From a virus (Duplodnaviria > Heunggongvirae > Uroviricota > Caudoviricetes), in IMG/VR virus record IMGVR_UViG_2711768060_000011: a stretch of 36,364 nt of DNA, one strand, 5' to 3'. Below are positions 6,613 to 36,364 of this stretch, one piece after another. Under the pieces are notes generated by a model that had not been told where the DNA came from, ran no database searches, and saw nothing but the letters and a program-made list of their open reading frames with translations. The number at the start of each line of letters is the position of its first letter. Position 1 is the first letter of the stretch. The translations under genes were made by a program, and so were the position numbers.

Positions 6613-8448
6613 TTACCTGCCAAAGCGCGTATAGCCAACATCATGGCTGACATCAAAACCGCTGGATCGCGTTTCCATAACCCGCATACCCGGAGGCGAA
6701 TTCACAAAAGAGACCTTGATCTCACCATCAACTTTTGGCGCAGAAGCTTTGTTAATCATGAAGGGATTCGGGCCTGTGGCACCGGAGGCGTTGTTTGACT
6801 GAGCCGGATCCACCACCGGATAAGGTGTGTATCCCCGCGCCGGTATTCCCGTCCCATAAGCATCATAAGCACCCGCGCCCCACTGCGCAGAGTTAATGGC
6901 ATCGACCGTGTCACCGGAACTGTCGGTAAACCACTCAATAATTGGCTTCAGCTTGTCCCACATATCCTGAAACCACTTAACAACCGGTCCCCAGTTATTG
7001 ATTACCATCCCCAGCGGCGACCAGGCAAAAACCTTCTTCAGAAGTTCCCGGCCAGCCTCAAAATAAGGACCAATGGTTTCCCAGAGCTTCTTGAAATAAG
7101 GTCCTACAACATCCCAGTTAGTGATAATTAATCCCGCAGCCAGGGCTATCGCCGTCGCAATCATTCCAATCGGCGTCATCGACATGATCCTGCTGACAAT
7201 ACTGATGGCACCGCCAACGCCCATCAATCCCAGTTTCAGAATCGCAAGACCGGCAGCAAGCCCGACGACGCCGCGAATAACCCGGGGATTTTCATCCGCA
7301 AACTTCGTGAATTTTTCCCCCAACTCCCCCAGCCATTGCGTGATATTTTTGGCGTCACCAGAAAATGCGCCGCCAATAGCCGCAAGGCCGTTAGTTGCGG
7401 TCCCCGTCATTGCCTCCCACAGGTTGGACAGCGTACCAAGCTGGGCCTGAACACGTTTATTCAGGCTGGCCTGTTTATTCATCTTCTGCTGGATCTGATC
7501 GTAGCCATCCTTTCCTTTATCGATCAGTGCATTGACCACCTGAAGGGTTTCGGCATCATCACCAAATATTGCCTTAAGTACACCTGTTCGCTTAACGTCG
7601 GTCAGTTTTCGCAGCTTTGCCAGTTGCCTGAACATGTTATCAAGACCGCCAAAACTTCCTTTGCCGTCAGTAAAATCGAGCTGTACCCCGAGTTTCTGGC
7701 GGGCCATGACTTTATTGACGTCCCTGATTTTCTTAACGCTTAATCCGGACTGGATAACTTTTCGCAGGGCATTACCTGCCGACTCCCCGTTCATCCCCAT
7801 CTGATCCATCATGACACTGATGGGGGCAAGACTCTGTGCAGCCTGAAGACCGTCCTTGTTCACCATCTTCAGAACAGAGCTGGTTTTAGTGAAGAATGAC
7901 AGCATGTTGGTGTCGTCAACGCCCAGATAAAACGCCTTCTGAATTGTGTCGAACAGCCCCATCATGTCTTCTGAGACCGTTCCGGTAGCATCCTGCATCT
8001 TTGCGGCAAACTCGGCAGCCGCTTCCGGTGTTTTTTTCAGTTGTACCGCAAGATAAGCTGTCGCTTTACCCACACCGCCAAGAATGTTTTCTGCCGGGAT
8101 CCCCTGACGCACCAGCATCTGCATCATGTTCTGAAAATCAGCTGTTGTACCGGGTAGCTGGTTACCCAGGCCAATAGCCAGTTTATTGATGTCCTGAAAG
8201 CGCTTTCCAACCTCGCCGTTCGCATCCATCATGGCGACTTTCAGCCCGGTGGCGGCGTTTTCCTGATCGGCATAAGATTTCAGGGAAAGCGTCAGACCCG
8301 CTGCCAGTCCGCCACCAAGCGCCAGCCCACCCTGTGACGCTTCTTCCGCCTGGCGTTTAAATCCCCGGATTTTCTTTTGCATTTTCGACAGCGCGGGAGA
8401 AAGCCTGTCGACACCGGTGATCAACGCCTTAAGCTCAAATTCAGCCAT
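6613..8448 (-). CDS. tail tape measure protein
   Basis: 611-aa ORF with long Ala/Gly/Leu-rich helical stretches and a hydrophobic segment, downstream of tube and chaperone genes. Confidence 0.85.
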   Translation of the reverse strand: MAEFELKALITGVDRLSPALSKMQKKIRGFKRQAEEASQGGLALGGGLAAGLTLSLKSYADQENAATGLKVAMMDANGEVGKRFQDINKLAIGLGNQLPGTTADFQNMMQMLVRQGIPAENILGGVGKATAYLAVQLKKTPEAAAEFAAKMQDATGTVSEDMMGLFDTIQKAFYLGVDDTNMLSFFTKTSSVLKMVNKDGLQAAQSLAPISVMMDQMGMNGESAGNALRKVIQSGLSVKKIRDVNKVMARQKLGVQLDFTDGKGSFGGLDNMFRQLAKLRKLTDVKRTGVLKAIFGDDAETLQVVNALIDKGKDGYDQIQQKMNKQASLNKRVQAQLGTLSNLWEAMTGTATNGLAAIGGAFSGDAKNITQWLGELGEKFTKFADENPRVIRGVVGLAAGLAILKLGLMGVGGAISIVSRIMSMTPIGMIATAIALAAGLIITNWDVVGPYFKKLWETIGPYFEAGRELLKKVFAWSPLGMVINNWGPVVKWFQDMWDKLKPIIEWFTDSSGDTVDAINSAQWGAGAYDAYGTGIPARGYTPYPVVDPAQSNNASGATGPNPFMINKASAPKVDGEIKVSFVNSPPGMRVMETRSSGFDVSHDVGYTRFGR

Positions 8449-12863: not shown

Positions 12864-12887
12864 CAGGGGCGCGGTTCCGCGCCCCTG
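12864..12887 (-). terminator. strong GC hairpin just downstream of the major capsid gene (partial terminator or mRNA-stabilising element)
   Basis: 10-bp perfect stem CAGGGGCGCG/CGCGCCCCTG with 4-nt loop; weak U-tract. Confidence 0.3.
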
Positions 12888-14112: not shown

Positions 14113-14799
14113 TTAGAAGTTCAGATTTTTCAGTGCATTCAGTGCAGAGCCCACATCCTCAGCGTCGCGCAGGGACAGTGCGCCATAGCCCCCGGCCATG
14201 AATGCTTTGGCCTGGGTACGGGAGAGTCCGACATCACGCAGGACTCTTTCGATTTTTTTCTGTTCGGGGATTTCCCCGCGGGCCAGTGCGTTCTTGACGT
14301 CGCTGATCCGCGCCTCGTCGTTAGACGGGAACGTCACCAGGCTGACTTCCCAGAGGTCGATTTCTTTCAGCAGAAAGGCTTCTTTGCTCCGGTCGTATTC
14401 CCAGTCTTTCAGGACGTACCCAATAGAAAGGCCGGTTAACGAACCGGCCTTCATGTGTGCATGTGCGCGTTTTGCGAGGGGATCATCATCAATAAGCAAC
14501 CGTCCCCTGACGTAAAGCCCGACATCGTCTTCCTTCATTTCGGTGTAAACACCGATGGGTTCATCCATGCGGTGCTGCCAGAGCAGCGCAGGTAACGCTT
14601 TTCTGTCACTCCACGCCCGCAGGGAAGCAGCAAATGCCCCGGACATCACCACATCATCGTGGCTGTCCTTTACACCAAAGACGGAGCCATACCCTTCAAA
14701 CTCACCGGAGTCACTGACAGATTTCAGACTCAGCGGTACATCAAGACGTTGTTTCGTCTGCATTGGCGTTATCCTTCTGCTTACCGGCCTTACTGCCAT
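14113..14799 (-). CDS. prohead maturation protease (HK97 / S78 family)
   Basis: 228-aa ORF between portal and capsid genes; the true start may be the internal Met at 14763. Confidence 0.8.
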   Translation of the reverse strand: MAVRPVSRRITPMQTKQRLDVPLSLKSVSDSGEFEGYGSVFGVKDSHDDVVMSGAFAASLRAWSDRKALPALLWQHRMDEPIGVYTEMKEDDVGLYVRGRLLIDDDPLAKRAHAHMKAGSLTGLSIGYVLKDWEYDRSKEAFLLKEIDLWEVSLVTFPSNDEARISDVKNALARGEIPEQKKIERVLRDVGLSRTQAKAFMAGGYGALSLRDAEDVGSALNALKNLNF

Positions 14800-16175: not shown

Positions 16176-17909
16176 TTAAAGCGAGCGGATCCCGTAGGAC
16201 TCAATGTGGTCAGACAACGTGTCTTCTTTCTCGTACAGCATGGCTCTGCCAACCGCCATAATCAGCGCAACTGCACCATCGATTTTGTTTTCCGCCTGCT
16301 CTTTGACGGGCTTCACCACATCATCGTTACCCGGAATGGTTTTGCCGACCACGTTGCCGATACACCAGGTCATGATGGGATTGCCATCATGATGAAAGCG
16401 CCCCGATTCAATTGCCGCTTCCAGCTCTTTCATCGGGTCGGACATGTTGGTGTAGTTCTGAATGATAGTGATGGGGTTCAGGTCTTCATCAGCAAGGTCA
16501 TGTGAGAGCCCGGTCGCCCCGAAGGGGTCGATGGGTGACTCGCTGACCGGGCTGATTTTGTTCGCCGCTTTGGCCTCCTCGAGGATGTAGCGATAATCCA
16601 CCTCCGCACCAGCGGTAACGGTCAGAACGCCCATTTCCACCCATTTCTGAAAGCGTTCGGCTGTCCGGCGATCTTCATTTTTCTCGACGCTGTACACCGT
16701 GTCATACGGTACCCAGAAGCGCGGAGCCACACTGTAGTAATGCGTTTTACCATCAATCTCGCGGGTATAAAGTCGCGCCATACTGTTCATATCCAGCTTA
16801 CGCGCCAGGTCAAAGGCCAGAATGCACGGCTGCCCCTCGAACTGCTCAAGGGTCAGTGATTTATCCTCGCAGCTCTGCCAGCTCACCAGGTTGAAATACG
16901 CCGAACGCGCCGACACCCAGATATTGAGGTGTTTTGTTTTAAAGACGTTTGCCAGACGGGCGTTATTTTTCGCACGCTGCTGCTGACTTAACAAAAATTC
17001 GCGATAAACCGACACGCCAATATTCGGGTTGGCTTTTTCCAGCACCTGCGGGTCGGTCCAGTCATCGCCTTCGTCAACGGTATAGATGATCCCGAACAGT
17101 TCATCGTTGGGTACCGACCCGTTGAGCATCTCGATAACTTCCCGTCGCTTGTCGTAGCACGGCCCCTCAATGTTGTACCCTGCAGTAGTAATGGCCCACA
17201 TCAGTGGCTGACGTCGCGCCCCCATCCCGGTAAGCATCGTGGTGTAAAGCGCATCGGTGGCGTGCTCGTGATATTCATCCACCACCGCACAGTGGGGTGA
17301 TGAACCATCACCGGGGTTACCGATCAGCGGTTCAAACCGCGCGCCATCCTCCGGACGGTTCATGTTTGAGGCGTTAACCTCAATCCCGAACGCTTCCGTC
17401 AGCATGGGTGTGCGTTTACACATCAGTCGCGCCGGGCGAAAGACTTCCCACGCCTGTTTCTCTGTCGTGGCACCGGAATACACTTCCGCGCCAAACTCGT
17501 TATCACAGGCAAAACAATACAGGGCGACACCGGCAGAGATTGCCGATTTGCCGTTCTTACGGGGGATTTCGGTATACACCTCCCGGAAGCGGCGCAGCCG
17601 GGTACCTTTATTGACCCAGCCAAACGCACAGCAGATCACAAAGAGCTGCCACGGCTCCAGCGTGATGGGCATCCTCTTGAATGCCCACTCCCCCTTGGTG
17701 TGTGGCAACAGCTGAATAAATTTGGCGGCCCGTTCAGCCAGGTCCTTGTCGAAGCGGTAACGAAACGACTTACTTTTTTCCGCCATCAGGTCATCAAGAT
17801 GGCGCTGGCAGGCCTGAATCACAAACTGGCAGGCCACAATATTTCCGCGCACGACATCACGGGCATACTGATTGGCAGCATTTACGTTGGGGTAAGATTT
17901 CCGGCTCAT
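16176..17909 (-). CDS. terminase large subunit
   Basis: 577-aa ORF with a Walker A-like GKS motif ([13 protein letters not shown]) and acidic nuclease-type C-terminal half; 4-nt overlap with the small subunit gene. Confidence 0.9.
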
Positions 17910-18986: not shown

Positions 18987-19012
18987 TAAAAAACCGCCCG
19001 AAGGCGGTTTTT
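18987..19012. terminator. bidirectional Rho-independent terminator after the 192-aa cargo gene
   Basis: Stem ACCGCC/GGCGGT with CGAA loop, flanked by an A-run upstream and T-run downstream. Confidence 0.65.
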
Positions 19013-19015
19013 ACA

Positions 19016-19594
19016 TCATGCATATGCATAATTTTCTTCTGCAACAAGCTTTGCAACCTGTCTATCAGGAAGAAGTAAAACAGCCTGCTCTAGGCTTTGT
19101 TTTTCAGTGAGTAACTCTAAAAATTGGTTGGCTGTTTGCAGAACTTTTGCCACAGACCAAATTGTTAACATAATTGGAAGAGAATATATAATCAACATTA
19201 AACTATTGAAAAGCAAAACCTTATCCAAGATTTTAGCTGATTCTCGTATCGTTGCTATTAACTTCCCGTTATCACATTTCTGAAAAAGTTCAACCTCACG
19301 TTTGATCCTTGCCTGTATCTCTGGATTAGCACTGAGCCGCCTTTGAGCCCTCACTCTGTTGGGCAAAGTCATAAGGTGCAAACGATTGATTGCGTTGTTT
19401 AAGGCCTCATGTACAAGCTCAGCCGCTTGTACATCATCTTTACTTTTATTCGAAATTATTTGATTTCTAACTATATCTCTCAGTTCAAAAAGCTTATTGC
19501 GGTAATGCAAACGAACAGATGGAAGTAGTATCCTTTCGTAAATAAAATGCACTGCTGCCATACATAACAGCACATAAAAAAGCACTGTCAGCAT
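19016..19594 (-). CDS. membrane protein of unknown function (cargo gene)
   Basis: 192-aa ORF with AGGAG Shine-Dalgarno; hydrophobic N-terminal helix and a second hydrophobic segment near residue 130; low GC; followed directly by a bidirectional terminator. Confidence 0.5.
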   Translation of the reverse strand: MLTVLFYVLLCMAAVHFIYERILLPSVRLHYRNKLFELRDIVRNQIISNKSKDDVQAAELVHEALNNAINRLHLMTLPNRVRAQRRLSANPEIQARIKREVELFQKCDNGKLIATIRESAKILDKVLLFNSLMLIIYSLPIMLTIWSVAKVLQTANQFLELLTEKQSLEQAVLLLPDRQVAKLVAEENYAYA

Positions 19595-28293: not shown

Positions 28294-28880
28294 GCGTTAG
28301 TTTCTCCACAACCAGAAGCAATCGACGCCACGACGCCCGGAGCTGCACACTCGCGGGCGTCATTACTTTCTGAAATGCAAAAAATTTTGTAGACAAGTGC
28401 TGCATGCTCCTGCAGCTTCGAAATTGAGAGATACAGCTCGTCGTTAATTGCTGTCTTCTCATGCGGTTCCACTACGCCGTCTTCGATTGCTGAACGAATC
28501 TGTTTTGAATAACTGCCGATCTGTTCAATGACTTCCAGCAGACGCTGGTTAATATCGGCGTTGTCCACATCCTCGACGTCAGGAAGAGACACAAAGACGC
28601 CATTTGCAGACTGCGCCACAGCATCAGCAATGAAGTGAGTGCCACCAGCACGCTGTAAAACCATTGCCCATCCCAGCGGGAAAATCTGATCGCCATCTGC
28701 ACGAAGGCGGTTGAATAAAGCGTTCTCTGTTACATCCAGCCAGTCAGCGGCTTCAGCGTAACCCCCCGGCAACGCCGCGATAGTTTTTCTGACAGCTTTC
28801 ACGTACCACTCAGGCTGTTTTTCTATTTTCCAGTGATGCTTACCCACGGCTATCTCCTTAAAACTGTGGTTACTTTTCAT
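28290..28880 (-). CDS. CII/YdaT-like phage regulatory protein (putative)
   Basis: ORF 28290..28952; start placed at the internal Met (28880) to limit overlap with cro; immediately downstream of the cro-like gene. Confidence 0.45.
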
Positions 28881-29118
28881 CTGATGAATCTTTAATCTTT
28901 TGAAAAATATCTGGACGTAATTTTTCTTTTGATATGCCAGTGGTCTTTTCAATGAATATCGAGAGCTTTGCAGGGGGACGCTTTTCTCTGTTCAACCAGT
29001 TCCAGACATGTTGTTGCTTTACTAAATGACCGCTGCTGGCTGTGAGCTTCCGAGCCAATTCTGATTGACCACCAGCCAGAGCGATTGCCTCCGATAAGGC
29101 TAATTGCTCAGGTGTCAT
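28870..29118 (-). CDS. Cro/YdaS-like HTH regulator
   Basis: 82-aa ORF divergent from the cI-like repressor; HTH-like segment SELARKLTASSGHLVKQQHVWNWL. Confidence 0.7.
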   Translation of the reverse strand: MTPEQLALSEAIALAGGQSELARKLTASSGHLVKQQHVWNWLNREKRPPAKLSIFIEKTTGISKEKLRPDIFQKIKDSSDEK

Positions 29119-29138: not shown

Positions 29139-29230
29139 GTTAAGTTGTTACGAGCTGCAAGAATACAACATTAACAACTTTCACCACAACTTTTAGGTGT
29201 TGGAAAGCTAAAACATAAAGTTGTAACCTC
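29139..29230. promoter_or_regulatory. right operator/promoter region between the divergent cro-like and cI-like genes
   Basis: Three copies of AAGTTGT(T)A in both orientations (TAAGTTGTTA 29141-29150, TTAACAACTT 29171-29180, AAAGTTGTAACC 29217-29228) within the 135-bp divergent intergenic region. Confidence 0.6.
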
Positions 29231-29253
29231 ATCAAAAAAGAGAGGGATATGTT

Positions 29254-29940
29254 GTGAAAACACTGGCAGAACGATTAAAGATAGGTAGAGAGAAAGCTGG
29301 CATGAGCCAAGCTCAACTAGCTGAAAAAATTGGACTTTCACAACAATCTGTAGCCAAAATAGAGAATGGCGAAACTCTACAACCGCGCAAAATTAAAGAA
29401 ATTGCAAAAGTTTTAGGTGTATCACAAAAGTGGTTACAACTTGGTATTGAAGACAACGCATCCATACCTGATCTTGTTGTAAAAGAAGCAGAAAGCACCG
29501 CATTAGACCCCGATATTTTCGTAAACATTCCTGTTTTAGATGTCGAGTTATCGGCAGGTAACGGATGTCTGGCTGAAATAGTTGAATCAGCTATTGACTG
29601 GTTTCCGTTAAGAAGAGCAGATTTGAGAAAATCTGGCGTATGTGCATCTAATGCCAAGATCGTACAAATATGGGGGAACAGTTTATTACCGGTTCTCAAT
29701 AATGGAGATCTTGTTGCCGTTGATATTTCTCAAACCGTTCCTATTCGTGATGGCGATCTTTATGCCGTACGAGATGGTGTATTGCTAAGGGTTAAAATAC
29801 TTATCAACTTACCTGACGGTGGCTTGATTCTTAGAAGCTTCAACAAAGATGAGTACCCAGATGAAATACTCACCTTTGAAGATAGACGAGCCAGAATTCA
29901 TGTTATAGGTAGGGTATTCTGGTCATCGCGAACTTGGTAA
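29254..29940 (+). CDS. cI-like prophage repressor (HTH_XRE plus S24 LexA-type autopeptidase); GTG start
   Basis: N-terminal HTH (MSQAQLAEKIGLSQQSVAKIENGE), Ala-Gly cleavage site (LSAGNG), C-terminal S24-like Ser (GNSLLP) and Lys (LLRVKIL); AGAGGG Shine-Dalgarno before GTG at 29254. Confidence 0.9.
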   Translation: MKTLAERLKIGREKAGMSQAQLAEKIGLSQQSVAKIENGETLQPRKIKEIAKVLGVSQKWLQLGIEDNASIPDLVVKEAESTALDPDIFVNIPVLDVELSAGNGCLAEIVESAIDWFPLRRADLRKSGVCASNAKIVQIWGNSLLPVLNNGDLVAVDISQTVPIRDGDLYAVRDGVLLRVKILINLPDGGLILRSFNKDEYPDEILTFEDRRARIHVIGRVFWSSRTW

Positions 29941-30942
29941 TGCATCGAAAAGCATTTCTTCAGAAATAATTTTAAGTTTTGCACCATTATCATCCCTATA
30001 AGATATAGCCTTTTCGATCTTCCTTCCGTGACTAGAGAATTTCCAATCACGGGAGGAAAGCGTCCCAATTACTAAAAAATCCAACTTTTGAGTAATTCCA
30101 CTACTGATGTTCCCACCAGCATTTTTAATCAAATTTTCAACTACGGCTCTCTTTCCTGCAACAAAAGTGCCTGTAAGACAATAGGTTTTACCCTCTAACT
30201 CTATCGAAGCCCCTACATCAATAGGCAGCCTGGTCGCCAAACCATCCACCACCCCACTTTCCAAGTCACATCCTGTGAAGTCTACTAATGCCTTATGTAG
30301 AGTTAAACTCTCATCTTCAGTAATAACACCATCTTTAAGAATTTCCTTTACAAGTGCATAAAGTTTTTTTCCTGGGTAGTTGTTCTTCAAAGCTCCATTT
30401 TGCTCAAGCCACCAATTAAGATATCTTATTTCTTCTTGAGTTAAGTTCCGATCAGCAATTAATCCTTTACATAGTCCATTAAGTAAATGGACATCTACAT
30501 CCTTGGAGTAAAAATCAATTTCAGGGATATCAAGAATTTCCCTCTGTATTTGGAGAAGGCTATTTTTAAGGTCATCACGTTCTTCTGATGTGATTATTCC
30601 ATCCGCAAGAATATCCGACACCCGAGCAGATAGACTTTTTATAACTCCATTATTGATAATCTGCTTTGCTTCAAGTAACCATGTATCTAAGTAAAGAACC
30701 TCCTCTTCACGGACAACTCCATCTGCAATGATTCCATCAATGATGCTAATCAAGTTAGCAAATAACTTGTCCCGGTTTCGTGTAATTAAAAGCGTAAAGC
30801 GCGTCTTCCATACAACCTCCTTTTTTTGATAATCCTTGCGCTCCTTGGCTACTCGTTCAAACCACATAAAGTTGTTGGCAACATTCAAAACCACAACTAA
30901 ATTACAACTTAAAGGTGTTAAGACAACGAACAGGCAGGACAC
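29923..30942 (-). CDS. repeat-containing protein with C-terminal BRCT domain; likely true start at ATG 30867
   Basis: C-terminal ~90 aa (KTYCLTGTFVAGKRAVVENLIKNAGGNISSGITQKLDFLVIGT...) resembles the LigA-type BRCT domain; four ~45-aa repeats sharing ...L.DG.IT.EE...L...L; the first codon at 30942 is GTG and the N-terminal extension overlaps operator-like motifs. Confidence 0.6.
   Translation of the reverse strand: MSCLFVVLTPLSCNLVVVLNVANNFMWFERVAKERKDYQKKEVVWKTRFTLLITRNRDKLFANLISIIDGIIADGVVREEEVLYLDTWLLEAKQIINNGVIKSLSARVSDILADGIITSEERDDLKNSLLQIQREILDIPEIDFYSKDVDVHLLNGLCKGLIADRNLTQEEIRYLNWWLEQNGALKNNYPGKKLYALVKEILKDGVITEDESLTLHKALVDFTGCDLESGVVDGLATRLPIDVGASIELEGKTYCLTGTFVAGKRAVVENLIKNAGGNISSGITQKLDFLVIGTLSSRDWKFSSHGRKIEKAISYRDDNGAKLKIISEEMLFDALPSSR
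30866..30930. promoter_or_regulatory. OL-like operator cluster upstream of the plus-strand early operon
   Basis: Same motif as the right operator region: AAAGTTGTTGG (30868-30878), CCACAACTAA and ATTACAACTT (30891-30910). Confidence 0.5.
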
Positions 30943-31016: not shown

Positions 31017-31325
31017 ATGAATGAGCAGGATTTGAAGCATGTGATCGCATTGTTGCTGGAAGACGCTAAACGTTTGCAGCAGATAGAGCCAAATGCAGGC
31101 ACTGAGGCCCGTATTTTGTTAGCAAAACAGGCATTAAAGACTTGCGGGGCGCAAGATCCTGATCGAACCAAGTTCATGAATTTCATGGCTAACACGATCA
31201 CCCCCCTGCCATGCAATGGAGAGAGGGTGAGCCGTGTTTATCACGACACAATGGTTAAGGCATTAAGAATCGAGCTTGATGGGCTTAGGCGTAAGATCGT
31301 GATGAACAAAATCGTTGCCAACTAA
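31017..31325 (+). CDS. hypothetical early protein (first gene of the plus-strand early operon)
   Basis: 102-aa ORF with GGAGAG Shine-Dalgarno, starting ~90 bp after the OL-like operator cluster. Confidence 0.4.
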   Translation: MNEQDLKHVIALLLEDAKRLQQIEPNAGTEARILLAKQALKTCGAQDPDRTKFMNFMANTITPLPCNGERVSRVYHDTMVKALRIELDGLRRKIVMNKIVAN

Positions 31326-31604: not shown

Positions 31605-31883
31605 TAGGTTTCCTTGCTGGCTGTGTGAGAACTCCAGCATACCACCGAGCCTGAAGTGGTGAAAAGACAGGCAATAGTTTCATTGCTGTGTGTAGTCTTG
31701 GCGGTACCAGCTTGTACCCTTGCTTCCGGCTGGTACCGTCCTTTTTACAAAACAGAGAAGAGCATCACCGGACGACGGGCTCATAACCCAATCCATCCGG
31801 GCGGCGGCCACCACAGGTGTTCTTCTCTGTTTTGTGGAGAAACTAATAGGCCTTGCAGGGTCGATATGATGAGGAGCAGCAAA

Positions 31884-32246
31884 ATGGCTAGCGAACGCAG
31901 TACTGATGTACAGGCATTTATCGGGGAGCTGGACGGCGGCGTATTTGAAACCAAAATCGGCGCAGTTCTCAGTGAAGTCGCTTCCGGTGTGATGAACACG
32001 AAAACCAAAGGTAAGGTCTCGCTCAACCTGGAAATTGAACCATTTGATGAGAACCGTGTGAAAATCAAACACAAACTCTCATATGTTCGCCCAACTAACC
32101 GCGGGAAAATTTCCGAAGAAGACACTACCGAAACGCCGATGTATGTCAATCGCGGTGGTCGCCTGACTATTCTGCAGGAAGACCAGGGACAATTACTGAC
32201 TCTTGCCGGTGAACCTGACGGAAAACTCCGCGCAGCAGGTCGTTAA
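31884..32246 (+). CDS. YfdP-like early protein
   Basis: 120-aa product from ATG 31884 with GAGGAG Shine-Dalgarno (ORF track starts earlier at a poorer start); size and neighbourhood match CPS-53 yfdP-yfdQ-yfdR as recalled. Confidence 0.55.
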   Translation: MASERSTDVQAFIGELDGGVFETKIGAVLSEVASGVMNTKTKGKVSLNLEIEPFDENRVKIKHKLSYVRPTNRGKISEEDTTETPMYVNRGGRLTILQEDQGQLLTLAGEPDGKLRAAGR

Positions 32247-32311
32247 TATCGTTCTTAATAAACTGATTATTTATCTCATCACTGAATATCTTTGTATAGT
32301 GAGGACTTATT

Positions 32312-33136
32312 ATGTCTCAGAACTTAGACGCAACCGCAATTAATCAAATCCATGCCCTTATTTCTGCTCAGGGTGTTAATGAAATTATCAGTAAGATTGG
32401 TGCCGACGCAGTGGCATTACCTGAAAATTTCCGCATTCATGATCTGGAAAAATTTAATTTAAATCGCTTCCGTTTCCGTGGTGCGCTTTCCACTGCCAGC
32501 ATCGATGACTTTACCCGTTATTCTAAAGATCTTGCAGATGAAGGCACCCGCTGCTTTATCGATGCTGATAATATGCGTGCCGTCAGTGTGCTTAACCTGG
32601 GTACTATTGATGAACCAGGTCACGCAGATAACACCGCCACTCTCAAACTGAAAAAGGCAGCGCCGTTCTCTGCTCTGTTGTCTGTTAATGGCGAGCGTAA
32701 CTCCCAGAAGTCACTGGCAGAATGGATTGAAGACTGGGCCGACTACCTTGTGGGCTTTGATGCTAATGGTGACGCTATTCAGGCAACAAAAGCGGCTGCG
32801 GCTGTCCGTAAAATCACGATTGAAGCAAACCAGACCGCTGATTTTGAAGATAATGACTTCAGCGGCAAACGCTCCCTGATGGAGTCTGTCGAAGCGAAGA
32901 CCAAAGATATTATGCCAGTGGCATTTGAATTTAAATGCGTTCCGTTTGAAGGTCTGAAAGAACGTCCGTTTAAATTACGCCTCAGCATTATCACTGGCGA
33001 TCGTCCTGTACTGGTTCTGCGCATTATTCAGCTGGAAGCAGTGCAGGAAGAAATGGCTAACGAATTTCGTGATCTGCTTGTTGAGAAATTCAAAGACAGC
33101 AAAGTAGAAACCTTTATTGGTACTTTCACCGCCTGA
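32312..33136 (+). CDS. YfdQ-like protein (DUF2303 type)
   Basis: 274-aa ORF with Shine-Dalgarno, between the YfdP-like and HD-domain genes. Confidence 0.6.
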
Positions 33137-33148
33137 TTTCATTACTGC

Positions 33149-33170
33149 AAATGCCCCTGCGGGGGCATTT
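33149..33170 (+). terminator. hairpin between the YfdQ-like and HD-domain genes (possible attenuator)
   Basis: 9-bp perfect stem AAATGCCCC/GGGGCATTT with TGCG loop, 13 nt after the YfdQ-like stop; weak T-tract. Confidence 0.35.
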
Positions 33171-33263
33171 ATGGAAACGTAATTAACTCAATAATCGCCG
33201 GATGGTGAGGGCTTCCTTTTACCAGAATTCAGCGCGGTGCAGTGCATATACGTGGAGAACAAA

Positions 33264-33800
33264 ATGTCATTTATTAAAACTTTTTCCGGGAAGCATTTTT
33301 ATTATGGCAGGATAAATAAAGACGACATCGATATTAACGATATCGCGGTTTCCCTTTCAAATATCTGTCGCTTTGCCGGTCATCTTTCGCACTTCTACAG
33401 CGTCGCCCAACATGCGGTTCTTTGCAGCCAGCTGGTGCCGCAGGAATTTGCTTTTGAAGCGTTAATGCATGATGCAACAGAAGCGTATTGCCAGGACATT
33501 CCCGCACCACTGAAACGCCTTCTTCCTGACTATAAACGGATGGAAGAAAAAATAGACGCCGTAATCCGTGAGAAATACGGGTTACCTCAGGCTATGAGCA
33601 CGCCCGTGAAATATGCCGATCTCATCATGCTGGCAACCGAACGCCGCGATCTCGGGCTTGATGATGGCTCTTTCTGGCCAGTATTGGAAGGTATCCCAGC
33701 AACAGAGATGTTCGAAATTATTCCTCTGGCTCCTGGCCATGCCTACGAGATATTTATGGAACGTTTTAAAGAGCTGCATAAGATACATAAGCAATCCTGA
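33264..33800 (+). CDS. HD-domain phosphohydrolase (YfdR-like)
   Basis: 178-aa product from ATG 33264 (GGAGA Shine-Dalgarno); HD motif (EALMHDATEAY) plus upstream His residues (AGHLSHFYSVAQHAV). Confidence 0.7.
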   Translation: MSFIKTFSGKHFYYGRINKDDIDINDIAVSLSNICRFAGHLSHFYSVAQHAVLCSQLVPQEFAFEALMHDATEAYCQDIPAPLKRLLPDYKRMEEKIDAVIREKYGLPQAMSTPVKYADLIMLATERRDLGLDDGSFWPVLEGIPATEMFEIIPLAPGHAYEIFMERFKELHKIHKQS

Positions 33801-33840: not shown

Positions 33841-34101
33841 ATGAGGTTATCAAAAATGCTTCAAATGCTGACACTTGAGGAATGGGCTGCGGAAAAATTT
33901 AGGAGTAATCCTCCAAGTGTGTCCACATTGCGTCGTTATGCTAAGCAGAATTTATTTTGTCCACCGGCAATGAAACAAGGTCGACTATGGCGAGTACGTG
34001 AGGACGCAGAGTTAGTTGGGGAATTAGTTACTCCTGTCATCAAGAAAAGTGATTCTATTATTCTACAAAGGATTTTAAGTAATGGCAGCCAGACCACGTA
34101 A
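33841..34101 (+). CDS. excisionase (Xis-like DNA-binding protein)
   Basis: 86-aa ORF immediately upstream of and overlapping the integrase start by 20 nt. Confidence 0.5.
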   Translation: MRLSKMLQMLTLEEWAAEKFRSNPPSVSTLRRYAKQNLFCPPAMKQGRLWRVREDAELVGELVTPVIKKSDSIILQRILSNGSQTT

Positions 34102-35212
34102 AAATAATGTTTCAGTCCCGAACTTGTATCCACTTTATAGTAGAAAAGTAAATAAAGTCTATTGGCGATATAAACATCCAGTGACCGGGAAGTTTCATTC
34201 TTTAGGCACAAACGAAGCTGAAGCCATTGCTATTGCCACTGAGGCAAATTCACGCCTGGCTGAGCAAAGAACCCGGCAGATTCTGGCTATCAGTGACAGG
34301 ATCGCAACCAGCAAAGGAAAAGCAATCACAACGTCAACCTGGTTAGATCGCTATCAAGCAATCCAGGATGACAGACTGGAAAGTGGCGATATAAAGCTCA
34401 ACACCTATAAACAGAAAGCCAAACCAGTATCCTTGCTCAGGGAACGAGCAGGAATGAAATTAATTTCATCAGTTGATGTAAGGGATATAGCGCAATTGCT
34501 TGACGAGTATATCACTGCCGGGCAACCGAGGATGGCGCAAGTAGTCCGCTCCGTTCTAATTGATGTATTCAAGGAGGCACAACACTATGGGGAAGTCCCT
34601 CCGGGCTATAATCCAGCACAGGCAACCAAACAACCCAGAAGAAAAATTACCCGACAACGGTTAAGTCTTGAAGAATGGCAAAAAATCTTTGATATCGCAG
34701 ATGCCAGTCATCGTTATATGGGGAATGCCATGCTGTTAGCACTGGTTACCGGCCAGAGGTTAGGTGATATCTCGCGTATGAAATTTAGCGATATTTGGGA
34801 TGATCATCTCCATGTCATCCAGGAAAAAACCGGGAGCAAAATCGCCATCCCGCTTTCTCTTCGTCTCAACGCGATTAACTGGAGTTTACGCGATGTAGTC
34901 GCCCGCTGCCGTGACTATGCAGTCAGCCCATACCTTGTGCATTTTTTTCGTACCACTTCACAGGCTGAACGTGGCGCGCAGGTTAAATCCAATACATTGA
35001 CGACGAATTTTAGTAGAGCGAGAGATTTGGCAGAAATTGACTGGGGTAATGGCTCACCAGCAACATTCCATGAACAAAGGTCTTTATCTGAACGTCTGTA
35101 CAAAGAACAGGGGGTAGACACACAAAAACTACTTGGCCATAAAACGCAACAACAAACCGATCGTTATCATGATGATCGGGGAAAAGATTGGATGTATATC
35201 CACCAGTTTTAA
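34082..35212 (+). CDS. int: site-specific tyrosine integrase (lambda Int family)
   Basis: 376-aa ORF; C-terminal LLGHKTQQQTDRYHDDRGKDW resembles the lambda Int C-terminus (GHKSDTMASQYRDDRG) with the catalytic Tyr. Confidence 0.9.
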   Translation: MAARPRKNNVSVPNLYPLYSRKVNKVYWRYKHPVTGKFHSLGTNEAEAIAIATEANSRLAEQRTRQILAISDRIATSKGKAITTSTWLDRYQAIQDDRLESGDIKLNTYKQKAKPVSLLRERAGMKLISSVDVRDIAQLLDEYITAGQPRMAQVVRSVLIDVFKEAQHYGEVPPGYNPAQATKQPRRKITRQRLSLEEWQKIFDIADASHRYMGNAMLLALVTGQRLGDISRMKFSDIWDDHLHVIQEKTGSKIAIPLSLRLNAINWSLRDVVARCRDYAVSPYLVHFFRTTSQAERGAQVKSNTLTTNFSRARDLAEIDWGNGSPATFHEQRSLSERLYKEQGVDTQKLLGHKTQQQTDRYHDDRGKDWMYIHQF

Positions 35213-35311: not shown

Positions 35312-36364
35312 ATGAATACAAATGTAGGGCAGATCACATTAATTGATCTAATTTCAATGCTTGAGAGAAAAGAACTAATAATTAACAAGGATTATCAGCG
35401 CGGAAATGGAATATGGCCACCATTTGCAAAGAGTTATTTCATAGACACTATTCTAGAAAATTATCCTTTCCCCAAAATATATTTATATCAAGCATTTGAC
35501 AGGACAAACGAAAGGCCAATTAAAGAAATTGTTGATGGCCAGCAACGAGTAACAACTCTCGTTGATTTTTATAAAAACAAATTTGCACTTACTTCGGCAT
35601 CGAAGAAGTATTCTGGCATGTATTTTAATGATTTGCCCGATGATGCAAAAAGATGTTTTATTAGTTATCAAGTTGAAACATCCACAGTTTATTCAGCAAG
35701 CAGGGCTGAATTACTCGAAATGTTTAGACGAATGAATGCTTATACATCTCCACTAACATCAGCAGAAAAACGGCATGCTACTTTTCAAGGTGCATTTAAG
35801 TGGTATATCGTTGAAAAAGCAGATACCCACGCTGAGCTTTTAGAGATTTATAATATATTGTCACCCAAAATATTAGCCAGAATGGGTGATGCAGAATTTA
35901 TCTCAGATATGGCAATACTCATTGATAGAGGGCTTTGTTCAAAGTCGGCACCTGCAACCGAAGCTATTTATAAAAAATACGATGATGATTTTCCTTTAGA
36001 GAATATCTATAACGAGAGAATTGATTATTTCTTCAATTTATTGGCGGAAGATTTTTCCGAATTACGTAATTCATTTATGATGAAATCGTATGTTGTTCAC
36101 TCATTATTTTGTGCTATTACCGCATTAAAATTTGGTTTCCCCGGAAGTGATGAACTTGAAAATGAACTCGGTTTCACGGCTAACCCAAACTTTGATGTAA
36201 ATCCTTCCCGTGTAATTCCGATTCTCTTAGAGATGGCTGATGCCCATGAAATTCAGGACGAAGATGGCCCTTATGCAGCCTATGTAACAAGTTGTTTATC
36301 ATCAACAACCAAGCTACCACAACGAACCACGCGCACAAAAGAACTGATTAAAGCATTCTTATGA
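35312..36364 (+). CDS. DUF262 (GmrSD N-terminal / ParB-like) domain protein, stand-alone
   Basis: 350-aa AT-rich ORF with AGGAGA Shine-Dalgarno; N-terminal DYQRGNGIW and DGQQR motifs diagnostic of DUF262; no HNH/DUF1524 motif seen in the C-terminal half; stop is the last codon of the window. Confidence 0.75.
   Translation: MNTNVGQITLIDLISMLERKELIINKDYQRGNGIWPPFAKSYFIDTILENYPFPKIYLYQAFDRTNERPIKEIVDGQQRVTTLVDFYKNKFALTSASKKYSGMYFNDLPDDAKRCFISYQVETSTVYSASRAELLEMFRRMNAYTSPLTSAEKRHATFQGAFKWYIVEKADTHAELLEIYNILSPKILARMGDAEFISDMAILIDRGLCSKSAPATEAIYKKYDDDFPLENIYNERIDYFFNLLAEDFSELRNSFMMKSYVVHSLFCAITALKFGFPGSDELENELGFTANPNFDVNPSRVIPILLEMADAHEIQDEDGPYAAYVTSCLSSTTKLPQRTTRTKELIKAFL

Follow-up and report, generated by a model that had tools for sequence, protein, structure and literature searches.

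The yfdP-yfdQ-yfdR genes of an Escherichia coli e14-family prophage as a probable early-left segment of two separable units

The gene block and its prophage setting

The window analyzed here, a 36,364-nt stretch of viral DNA (IMG/VR record IMGVR_UViG_2711768060_000011), carries three consecutive genes, yfdP, yfdQ, and yfdR, which are listed together with the neighboring features in Table 1. An original prediction made from the letters alone held that the three genes match their namesakes in the E. coli CPS-53 prophage in length and order, and comparison with the K-12 MG1655 proteins bore this out. The lengths (120, 274, and 178 aa) are equal, the order is the same, and global alignment gave identities of 98.3% for YfdP (118/120), 98.9% for YfdQ (271/274), and 90.4% for YfdR (161/178); the 17 positions at which YfdR differs lie mostly in the C-terminal region. 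At the DNA level, the block is 96.5% identical to that of CPS-53 across 1,905 nt. YfdP matched the phrog_204 profile at 1.2e-49, and PF27127 (YfdP) is a precomputed annotation on its homologues. YfdQ matched PF10065 with 306.6 bits (cutoff, 26.6; 1.7e-91), its residues 7-272 covering profile positions 2-269 of 269. The spacer between yfdP and yfdQ is 65 nt. The mechanical open reading frame of yfdR starts at GTG 33237, and the 178 residues are counted from ATG 33264. An N-terminally extended YfdP (a 196-aa frame from GTG 31656 with a signal-peptide-like start) was rejected because the leader indels of other prophages and of Citrobacter phage phiNP are not multiples of three; it was also disfavored by the family alignments, which start at about residue 5 of the 120-aa form.

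By megablast, 3,012 of the 5,426 complete E. coli genomes carry the block, whose genes RefSeq labels there as yfdP, "YfdQ family protein", and "HD family hydrolase / 5'-deoxynucleotidase"; the top match, at 99.9%, was E. coli O91 RM7190. Judged by sequence, yfdP, yfdQ, and yfdR in the window are near-identical copies of catalogued E. coli prophage genes. The icd-integrated prophage of RM7190, in which intE and icd adjoin and which has a full set of head, tail, and lysis genes, is 99.98% identical to the window, and the window itself appears to be an intact e14-family prophage at icd with a contractile tail.

Table 1. Features of the yfdPQR region, with positions in the window
Feature	Position	Strand	Properties
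Putative left operator/promoter (OL/pL)	30860-30920	+	About 1 kb 5' of yfdP; repeats in common with the cI/cro intergenic region; function inferred
Hypothetical 102-aa ORF	31017-31325	+	phrog_12693; first plus-strand gene past the putative pL; same strand as yfdPQR-xis-int
Terminator-like hairpin T1	31700-31746	+	12-bp stem GGCGGTACCAGC / GCTGGTACCGTC, 17-nt loop, one C, then TTTTT; read from the sequence
Leader hairpin H2	31742-31840	+	25-bp stem, structured loop; ends 44 nt 5' of the yfdP start codon
yfdP	31884-32246	+	120 aa; Pfam PF27127 (YfdP), phrog_204
yfdQ	32312-33136	+	274 aa; DUF2303, PF10065, phrog_210
Post-yfdQ hairpin	33149-33170	+	AAATGCCCC-TGCG-GGGGCATTT; perfect 9-bp stem, 4-nt loop; starts 12 nt past the yfdQ stop codon
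yfdR	33264-33800	+	178 aa from ATG; HD-domain 5'-deoxynucleotidase family, phrog_318
xisE excisionase	33841-34101	+	Pfam Exc 1.8e-12; RefSeq xisE, RefSeq start equivalent to 33856; next gene 3' of yfdR
intE integrase	34082-35212	+	Arm-DNA-bind_1 7e-37, Phage_integrase 4e-18; end of the early-left arm

The gene order runs from cro (minus strand) and cI (plus strand) through operator-like repeats to the 102-aa ORF, yfdPQR, xisE, and intE (all plus strand). The cI-like protein carries HTH_3 and Peptidase_S24 domains. The yfdPQR genes thus share their strand with cI and int and fall between the repressor-operator region and xis-int, which is the lambdoid early-left (pL) layout; the arm is interrupted by two opposite-strand genes, a BRCT-domain gene and ymfI. 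The repeat ACATAAAGTTGT occurs at 29213, in the cI/cro intergenic region, and again at 30864, in the putative OL/pL, and the repeats CACAACTTTTAGGTGT / TACAACTTAAAGGTGT are found at 29185 and 30903. The window has 10 ACAACTT half-sites, seven of which fall within 29142-29442 and 30869-30910. A sigma-70-like match on the plus strand at 30875-30903 is a weak match to the consensus promoter. The description of the cluster as an early operon agrees with the position of the genes in a putatively repressor-controlled early-left arm, from which we infer the timing of expression. According to a 2025 survey, lambdoid early-left operons commonly carry the cluster, in which yfdP and yfdQ lack a known function (PMC12315714). 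None of exo, bet, gam, recT, and erf was found in the early-left arm of this prophage. The window contains 13 Chi sites, 11 of them in one orientation.

Hairpins upstream of yfdP and downstream of yfdQ

Two hairpins precede yfdP. T1 was retained by the consensus fold of 52 distinct leader sequences. The RNA fold of H2 has an energy of -57.7 kcal/mol (z = -3.3), and about 75 of 80 E. coli prophage loci carry H2 ahead of yfdP, as does phiNP. K-12 CPS-53 lacks it, having lost the leader hairpins (homology begins 19 nt before the yfdP ATG), whereas the T1/H2 leader of the window is intact. The pairs of H2 are mostly invariant, so that covariation lends weak support; the only changes seen were one-sided or, in a few cases, double and specific to phiNP, too few for covariation to prove the RNA structure. 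A scan of the whole window with Rfam gave no family at its gathering score. A likeness of 31687-31741 to the small RNA DicF (RF00039) was rejected: it scored 19.4 bits against a gathering score of 48 and was restricted to the terminator stem, the 5' half of the segment is not conserved among prophages, and no DicF-like match was present in the six related loci examined.

The hairpin that had been predicted between yfdQ and yfdR is present exactly as described, with five G-C pairs in its 9-bp stem. First-order Markov simulations predict about 0.9 perfect hairpins with stems of 9 bp or more in the window, which has six distinct ones. The tail of this one, ATGGAAAC, is not T-rich, the only Ts lying inside the stem, and a terminator scan made no call at 33149-33170, where no T-run or proper U-tract follows the stem. 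A very stable hairpin lies just 3' of yfdQ in five of seven diverged phages. At the same position, hairpins of different sequence were found in phiNP, Vibrio phage 34E29.1, Xanthomonas phage Tabio, and a metagenomic phage, each ranking in the top 0.15-0.35% of the 36-nt windows of its own locus. Within E. coli the hairpin is invariant (73 of 82 loci), and for this reason shows no covariation. It is most likely a leaky terminator or a 3'-end stabilizer that separates the yfdPQ unit from yfdR, and in that role it would cause YfdP and YfdQ to be made in greater amounts than the products of the downstream genes.

Relatives of the YfdP-YfdQ pair and of YfdR

Among the closest known systems is CPS-53 (KplE1) of K-12, which has the same order, gene lengths, and yfdQ-yfdR spacer as the window, including the hairpin in that spacer. 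CPS-53, which lies at argW, continues with yfdS, yfdT, and torI, whereas in the window, at icd, yfdR is followed by xisE and intE without yfdS or yfdT. The same triad is found in the early-left operons of lambdoid phages without a Rec module, namely Salmonella phage ST64B (sb35-sb37), phage LLS (gp37-39), and phiNP (PMC12315714), and in SfV (orf29-31; PMC4776307). The phiNP proteins are 61, 58, and 66% identical to YfdP, YfdQ, and YfdR, and phiNP has the leader hairpins and the post-yfdQ hairpin in common with the window; it differs in carrying methyltransferase and 3'-5' exonuclease genes between yfdR and xis, and the sequences are 35-40% diverged.

In all of the 94 fetched loci, which cover nine diverged lineages, yfdP stands immediately 5' of yfdQ on the same strand, either 55-80 nt apart or with an overlap of 4-8 nt. 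By tblastn, YfdP occurs in 180 and YfdQ in 184 phage records with nearly identical host breakdowns, and phages with the pair infect at least seven genera of Gammaproteobacteria (Escherichia/Shigella, Salmonella, Citrobacter, Vibrio, Xanthomonas, Pseudomonas, and Acinetobacter). YfdP and YfdQ thus appear to form an obligate, always adjacent phage gene pair. The pair occurs without YfdR in the examined Vibrio, Xanthomonas, Stx, and metagenomic phages. In phiON-2011 it is directly downstream of RecT and exo; in Vibrio phage 34E29.1 an RNase_T-type exonuclease is upstream and SSB downstream; and in a metagenomic phage a Gp3-like protein is downstream, with primase and helicase divergent. These neighborhoods point to a place for YfdP-YfdQ among phage DNA replication and recombination functions.

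The one structural relative of YfdQ is PDB 9o7m, "YfdQ Protein", from a Xanthomonas phage (MET23-P3-like). It is a DUF2303 member along its full length, is about 38% identical to the YfdQ of the window, and was matched at 5.7e-44 with a single sequence and 2e-58 with a profile. The related Xanthomonas phages have a yfdP homologue 5' and a hairpin 3' of this gene, as in the window; the 43-kb source genome has no adjacent YfdR, whereas in the window yfdR comes next. The 9o7m entry has 36 identical chains, and by analogy with this homologue, known here by its chain count only, YfdQ would assemble as a large homo-oligomer. Apart from 9o7m, YfdQ found no fold relative in the PDB, and in particular no Rad52-, RecA-, or Gp2.5-like match; its structure model is of moderate confidence (pLDDT 76), and the protein is acidic (pI 5.0). 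A profile search of the PDB for a YfdP partner chain gave chance AcrB matches only, and neither YfdP nor YfdQ has a recognizable fold. The diverse YfdP alignment holds no conserved stretch for a degenerate-pattern scan, and a literature search found no functional study of either protein.

YfdR, named 5'-deoxynucleotidase in K-12 RefSeq, matched phrog_318 (deoxyribonucleoside 5' monophosphate phosphatase) at 7e-106 and PDB 2gz4 at 2e-13. E. coli YfbR, an HD-domain 5'-deoxynucleotidase and dCMP phosphohydrolase, shares with it the conserved HDA(T/S)E...D(I/L)P.P.K and (Y/Q)AD motifs, and the Pfam and NCBIfam matches are weak but specific; the two are only 25% identical. YfdR residues H69, D70, E73, D78, and D119 align with the metal-binding/catalytic residues of YfbR and are invariant across K-12 YfdR, phiNP YfdR, and YfbR, while the first His of the metal-ligand motif (H50) was placed by eye only. 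YfdR scored below the curated cutoffs of PF12917 (YfbR-like; 25.1 versus 25.9), PF13023 (17.4 versus 22.5), and NF003009 (20.5 versus 122), and is a member of the phage subfamily phrog_318 rather than a YfbR equivalog or orthologue. Phosphatase activity on dNMPs is reported for K-12 YfdR through citations. According to PMC4776307, which cites Zimmerman et al. 2008, YfdR binds nucleotides with far less affinity than YfbR does, so its true role may lie outside nucleotidase activity.

YfdR-like HD hydrolases were found in 331 phage records, mostly Bacillus, Caulobacter, Rhizobium, and jumbo phages; the commonest hosts listed for YfdP-YfdQ include none of these, and the two host ranges are quite different. 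On this comparison, YfdR is distributed independently of the pair, and yfdPQR would be two functional units rather than one.

Proposed course of expression and competing explanations

Overall, we consider it probable that yfdPQR is a segment of a pL-type early-left arm in an intact e14-family prophage and is composed of two separable units. An SOS-cleavable cI-type repressor probably holds the arm silent. On induction, transcription would start at the operator/promoter region around 30860-30920 and pass through the 102-aa ORF and the structured leader, presumably reading through T1 and then H2, into yfdP, yfdQ, the post-yfdQ hairpin, yfdR, xisE, and intE. YfdR is predicted to be a YfbR-type, metal-dependent HD-domain phosphohydrolase with dNMPs as substrates, and its main action in this prophage would be on the nucleotide pool during lytic growth. 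Its effect on DnaA-dependent initiation may be a mild dampening at most, because YfdS and YfdT, the partners needed for a measurable block, are missing.

The original prediction went further and named the cluster a candidate host-takeover module, citing reports that YfdR-type HD-domain proteins bind DnaA and inhibit chromosomal replication when overexpressed. This account of the literature was broadly right. K-12 YfdR binds DnaA domain I via Phe46 (Noguchi & Katayama 2016, PMC4776307), a surface that is used by DiaA and DnaB (PMC4776307), and SirA on Phe49 of Bacillus subtilis DnaA is its analogue (PMC4776307, PMC5448010); the DnaA-targeting proteins lambda P, B. subtilis SirA, and E. coli DiaA and Dps have no sequence or fold relationship to YfdR. 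Multicopy yfd genes inhibit initiation at oriC, and yfdQRS or yfdQRT in multicopy does so both in vivo and in extracts (PMC4776307). Given this evidence, YfdR, aided by YfdQ, might occupy the Phe46 patch and displace DiaA and DnaB, so that chromosomal initiation stops while the phage replicates, and both the near identity of the two proteins to those of K-12 and the early-operon location of the genes are consistent with such a takeover. However, the effect of K-12 YfdR is moderate in vitro and in vivo needs YfdQ plus YfdS or YfdT. The minimal active set is yfdQ and yfdR with yfdS or yfdT; no suppression of hda-185 was obtained with pBS17, a plasmid that carries just yfdQR; yfdP is dispensable for the inhibition; deletion of yfdQRST had no initiation phenotype; and the authors allow that the initiation effect may be an overexpression artefact (PMC4776307). 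No YfdS or YfdT was found in the whole 36 kb (tblastn, best E = 0.30), and with yfdR followed directly by xisE and intE, the experimentally defined inhibitory set is incomplete here. According to a census of IMG/VR, yfdS and/or yfdT are present in 64 of about 80 E. coli loci, which puts the window prophage in the minority with neither. The many phages that carry YfdP-YfdQ without any YfdR also speak against the takeover module. The gene identities and the K-12 literature behind the proposal stand, whereas the missing partners and the division of the three genes into two units do not fit it. Shut-off of host DNA replication by the window genes is thus weakly supported, and we regard the takeover reading as unlikely.

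More doubtful still is the idea that YfdP-YfdQ is an unrecognized recombination or DNA-repair/protection module replacing the missing Rec module of a Chi-rich prophage. The lack of exo, bet, gam, recT, and erf in the arm and the number and orientation of the Chi sites would suit it, as would the RecT/exo, SSB, and exonuclease genes beside the pair in other phages and the large oligomer expected of YfdQ, which recalls annealing proteins; a yfdQ deletion is also reported as MMS- and H2O2-sensitive in work cited in PMC4776307. Against this, ArgO145 has the pair together with a complete Rec module (PMC12315714), the pair follows directly on RecT and exo in phiON-2011, it is not universal among Rec-less phages, and YfdQ lacks a fold match to Rad52, RecA, or Gp2.5. 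YfdQ as a RecT-like annealing protein was rejected outright (hhalign probability 0.07%, no profile similarity).

A further, rather improbable proposal is that YfdP-YfdQ is an uncharacterized two-protein machine for phage DNA replication or host interference. YfdQ would then form a large assembly, possibly of 36 subunits and possibly bound to nucleic acid, with a fold unlike the rest of the PDB, and T1, H2, and the post-yfdQ hairpin would act in cis at the RNA level to set how much of it is made, for instance through control of read-through or cleavage by RNase III.

Least likely, and in our judgment very improbable, is that the genes serve counter-defence or nucleotide-pool manipulation, with YfdR removing dNMPs or signaling/toxic nucleotides and the acidic, highly oligomeric YfdQ sequestering a host factor, so that the phage is shielded from host immunity. 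Anti-nuclease genes are common in early-left accessory regions (lambda Gam and Ral; P22 Abc), and HD phosphatases resembling YfdR occur widely among virulent and jumbo phages, two points that count in its favor; yet no result points to a specific target, the literature search found no paper linking yfdP, yfdQ, or yfdR to anti-defence, and none of the three proteins had a PADLOC match, a weak test since that library holds defence rather than anti-defence proteins.

For the reading of the locus as an early-left segment of two units, the consequences are ones of scope. The genes are already named and annotated and occur in more than half of complete E. coli genomes, so that finding them adds little, and the idea of replication inhibition was published in 2016 for a gene set that is incomplete in this prophage. 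The cluster would really be two units, an obligate YfdP-YfdQ pair and a separately mobile predicted dNMP phosphatase. Among early gene modules that still lack an explanation, the pair is one of the more frequent in temperate and some other phages, and one member now has a solved structure (9o7m).

Identity of the yfdP-yfdQ-yfdR block

The original prediction had recognized three consecutive plus-strand genes as yfdP-yfdQ-yfdR, and a protein comparison bore this out. Alignment of the translated proteins with those of CPS-53, the cryptic prophage of E. coli K-12 MG1655, gave identities of 98.3% (YfdP), 98.9% (YfdQ), and 90.4% (YfdR) at equal lengths (120, 274, and 178 aa), and the DNA was 96.5% identical across 1,905 nt. 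By megablast, the block was found in 3,012 of 5,426 complete E. coli genomes, where it is annotated as yfdP, YfdQ family protein, and HD family hydrolase or 5'-deoxynucleotidase. Family searches showed that DUF2303 (PF10065) covers YfdQ at full length (1.7e-91), and that YfdR has weak YfbR-like/HD matches in Pfam and a strong match to phrog_318 (deoxyribonucleoside 5' monophosphate phosphatase). YfdP matched phrog_204 and, via precomputed annotation, PF27127 'YfdP'. The identity of these genes is nearly certain and their physiology much less so; as prophage genes they are already catalogued and very common.

YfdR retains H69, D70, E73, D78, and D119, the positions aligned with YfbR's catalytic residues, and it matches the HD protein of PDB 2gz4. 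AF2 modelled YfdP with confidence (pLDDT 91.5) as a three-stranded sheet carrying two helices, and the model had no meaningful PDB neighbour; a proposed HU/IHF-like nature of YfdP was not supported by structure comparison. For YfdQ, a sequence search found PDB 9o7m ('YfdQ Protein'; 36 chains, one sequence), an entry missing from the Foldseek PDB library used (entries to April 2026) and for which our literature search found no paper. Since the example YfdQ chain is C, the entry may have a different component as chains A and B. The 9o7m protein comes from a Xanthomonas phage and is 98.8% identical to a protein of Xanthomonas phage MET23-P3, and the YfdQ of the related Xanthomonas phage Tabio is 38% identical to that of the window.

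Features of the window
Feature	Position	Strand	Description
Inverted segment	1-1499		adjoins pinE in the RM7190 genome
Five perfect hairpins, 9-10 bp	12864-12887; 14428-14451; 16370-16392; 18989-19012; 19409-19434		18989: symmetric, terminator-like, AAAAACCGCC-CGAA-GGCGGTTTTT
cro	28870-29118	-	divergent from cI
cI-like repressor	29254-29940	+	HTH_3 and Peptidase_S24 domains
BRCT-domain protein gene	29923-30813	-	296 aa; between repressor gene and putative pL
DicF-like stretch	31687-31741	+	19.4 bits (gathering score 48)
Terminator-like hairpin	31700-31746	+	U5 run
Leader hairpin	31742-31840	+	25-bp; -57.7 kcal/mol for 161-nt fold, z = -3.3
yfdP	31884-32246	+	120 aa ORF
yfdQ	32312-33136	+	274 aa ORF
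Hairpin between yfdQ and yfdR	33149-33170	+	AAATGCCCC-TGCG-GGGGCATTT
yfdR	33264-33800	+	178 aa counted from ATG; GGAG 8 nt upstream of start
DUF262 protein gene	35312-36364	+	just past intE; runs off window end

The early-left arm of the prophage

The window was 99.98% identical to a prophage integrated beside icd in E. coli O91 RM7190. This prophage carries intE/xisE, a cI/cro switch, replication and nin-type genes, lysis genes, terminase, an HK97-type head, a contractile tail with baseplate, pinE, and mcrA, and is apparently an intact e14-family member. Positions 1-1499, which are inverted relative to RM7190 and adjoin pinE there, are the Pin-invertible tail-fibre segment in the other orientation.

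Seven of the ten ACAACTT half-sites of the window lie in two short regions, 29142-29442 and 30860-30920, and the operator-like repeats of the cI/cro spacer, including longer shared repeats, occur again in the second region, approximately 1.6 kb to the right. These clusters probably mark the OR and OL operators of the S24-type repressor. Because the repeats and half-sites recur there together with a weak plus-strand sigma-70 match (30875-30903), OL/pL was placed at the second region. The putative OL/pL is followed on the plus strand by a 102-aa ORF, a structured leader, yfdP, yfdQ, the hairpin, yfdR, xisE, and intE, an arm interrupted by two opposite-strand genes, the BRCT-domain gene and ymfI. 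By analogy with the lambda pL operon, this architecture supports the prediction that yfdPQR belong to an early operon, here a putative pL-type one. According to a 2025 survey, early-left operons of lambdoid phages fairly often contain the yfdP/yfdQ/HD-phosphatase cluster (PMC12315714).

Two genes of the window have PADLOC matches. The BRCT-domain protein weakly matches PDC-S48, a candidate defence protein (2.4e-07), and its gene looks like cargo expressed in the lysogen. The DUF262 protein matches the PADLOC defence model NsnA (8.5e-32) and is probably anti-phage cargo where the prophage ends at its attachment site.

Putative RNA structures flanking yfdP and yfdQ

The hairpin between yfdQ and yfdR was present exactly as predicted; the window has six perfect hairpins of 9 bp or more, this one included (approximately 0.9 expected by chance). 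It is invariant within E. coli, which is uninformative either way. Strong stem-loops of unrelated sequence lie 3-20 nt past the yfdQ stop in phiNP, a Vibrio phage, a Xanthomonas phage, and a metagenomic phage, each among the top 0.15-0.35% when all 36-nt windows of the locus are ranked; the hairpin is weak in phiON-2011, and one contig, whose yfdQ is overlapped by the following gene, lacks it. No U-tract follows the stem in the window. We infer a leaky terminator or a 3'-exonuclease barrier, which would raise yfdPQ expression relative to downstream genes, consistent with a protein required in many copies.

The yfdP leader (31700-31840) holds two adjacent strong stem-loops, possibly an attenuator or RNase III site. 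Approximately 75 of 80 E. coli prophage loci have both together with yfdPQR, and so does Citrobacter phage phiNP; in K-12 CPS-53 both are deleted. SrsR is reported to bind in the K-12-specific yfdO/yfdP spacer. The overlapping sub-threshold likeness to the prophage sRNA DicF is limited to the terminator stem (TTGGCGGTA.CAG ... CCG.CCTTTTT), and the 5' part varies from one prophage class to another, which makes homology with DicF improbable. In the Stx phage phiON-2011, Rfam sRNA-Xcc1 scored above threshold (65.4 bits, gathering 53) at 7391-7480 of the locus, near the antirepressor gene and unrelated to yfdPQR.

The YfdP-YfdQ pair and its possible roles

Distant metagenomic YfdP homologues (32-38% identity) always had a DUF2303 gene directly next, often with a 4-8 nt gene overlap and with no HD gene after the pair. 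This adjacency also holds in annotated phages: the pair is followed by YfdR in phiNP and by a 471-aa protein in Xanthomonas phage Tabio, is preceded by RecT, exo, and one hypothetical gene in phiON-2011, and lies between an RNase_T-type exonuclease and SSB in Vibrio phage 34E29.1. By tblastn, YfdP and YfdQ matched 180 and 184 phage records with almost identical host breakdowns, and YfdR-like proteins matched 331, mainly Bacillus, Caulobacter, Rhizobium, and jumbo phages. These neighbourhoods and distributions argue that YfdP-YfdQ is an obligate pair and that YfdR is an independently mobile enzyme that happens to lie beside it in enterobacterial prophages. The block would then be a two-unit segment of the early-left arm, which we regard as the best overall account and a reasonably probable one.

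The original prediction read yfdPQR as a candidate host-takeover module acting through DnaA and replication inhibition. This reading rests on a single overexpression study, in which yfdQRST was isolated as a multicopy suppressor of hda-185 (Noguchi & Katayama 2016, PMC4776307). The minimal active set was yfdQ and yfdR with yfdS or yfdT; a plasmid with yfdQR alone was inactive, yfdP was dispensable, yfdQRST deletion gave no initiation phenotype, and the authors concede that overexpression may be artefactual (PMC4776307). No YfdS or YfdT homologue was found in the window, leaving the published inhibitory set incomplete. Among E. coli prophages, 64 related loci carry yfdS and/or yfdT after yfdR, and only 4 or 5 pass directly from yfdR to xis-int as the window does. 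The observation is confirmed, its interpretation is partly supported, and host takeover seems unlikely.

Less likely still is a cryptic recombination or repair role of the pair. Its neighbours in other phages and the sensitivity of yfdQ mutants to MMS (and H2O2; cited in PMC4776307) favour such a role, as do the lack of an exo, bet, gam, recT, or erf module in the early-left arm and the 13 Chi sites (GCTGGTGG) across the window, 11 on the minus strand. However, the pair coexists with full Rec modules in other phages and resembles known annealing proteins neither in fold nor in profile. The survey lists yfdP and yfdQ as genes of no known function. It regards hidden recombinases as improbable here, since phage ArgO145 has the cluster alongside a complete Rec module; the window fits the survey's Chi-rich 'no Rec module' class of lambdoid phages (PMC12315714). 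A counter-defence role of yfdPQR, with nothing specific in its support, is very improbable.

Phage SW1 production is reported to require yfdQ. What novelty remains is that of the uncharacterised YfdP-YfdQ pair and of the conserved RNA-like structures on either side of it.
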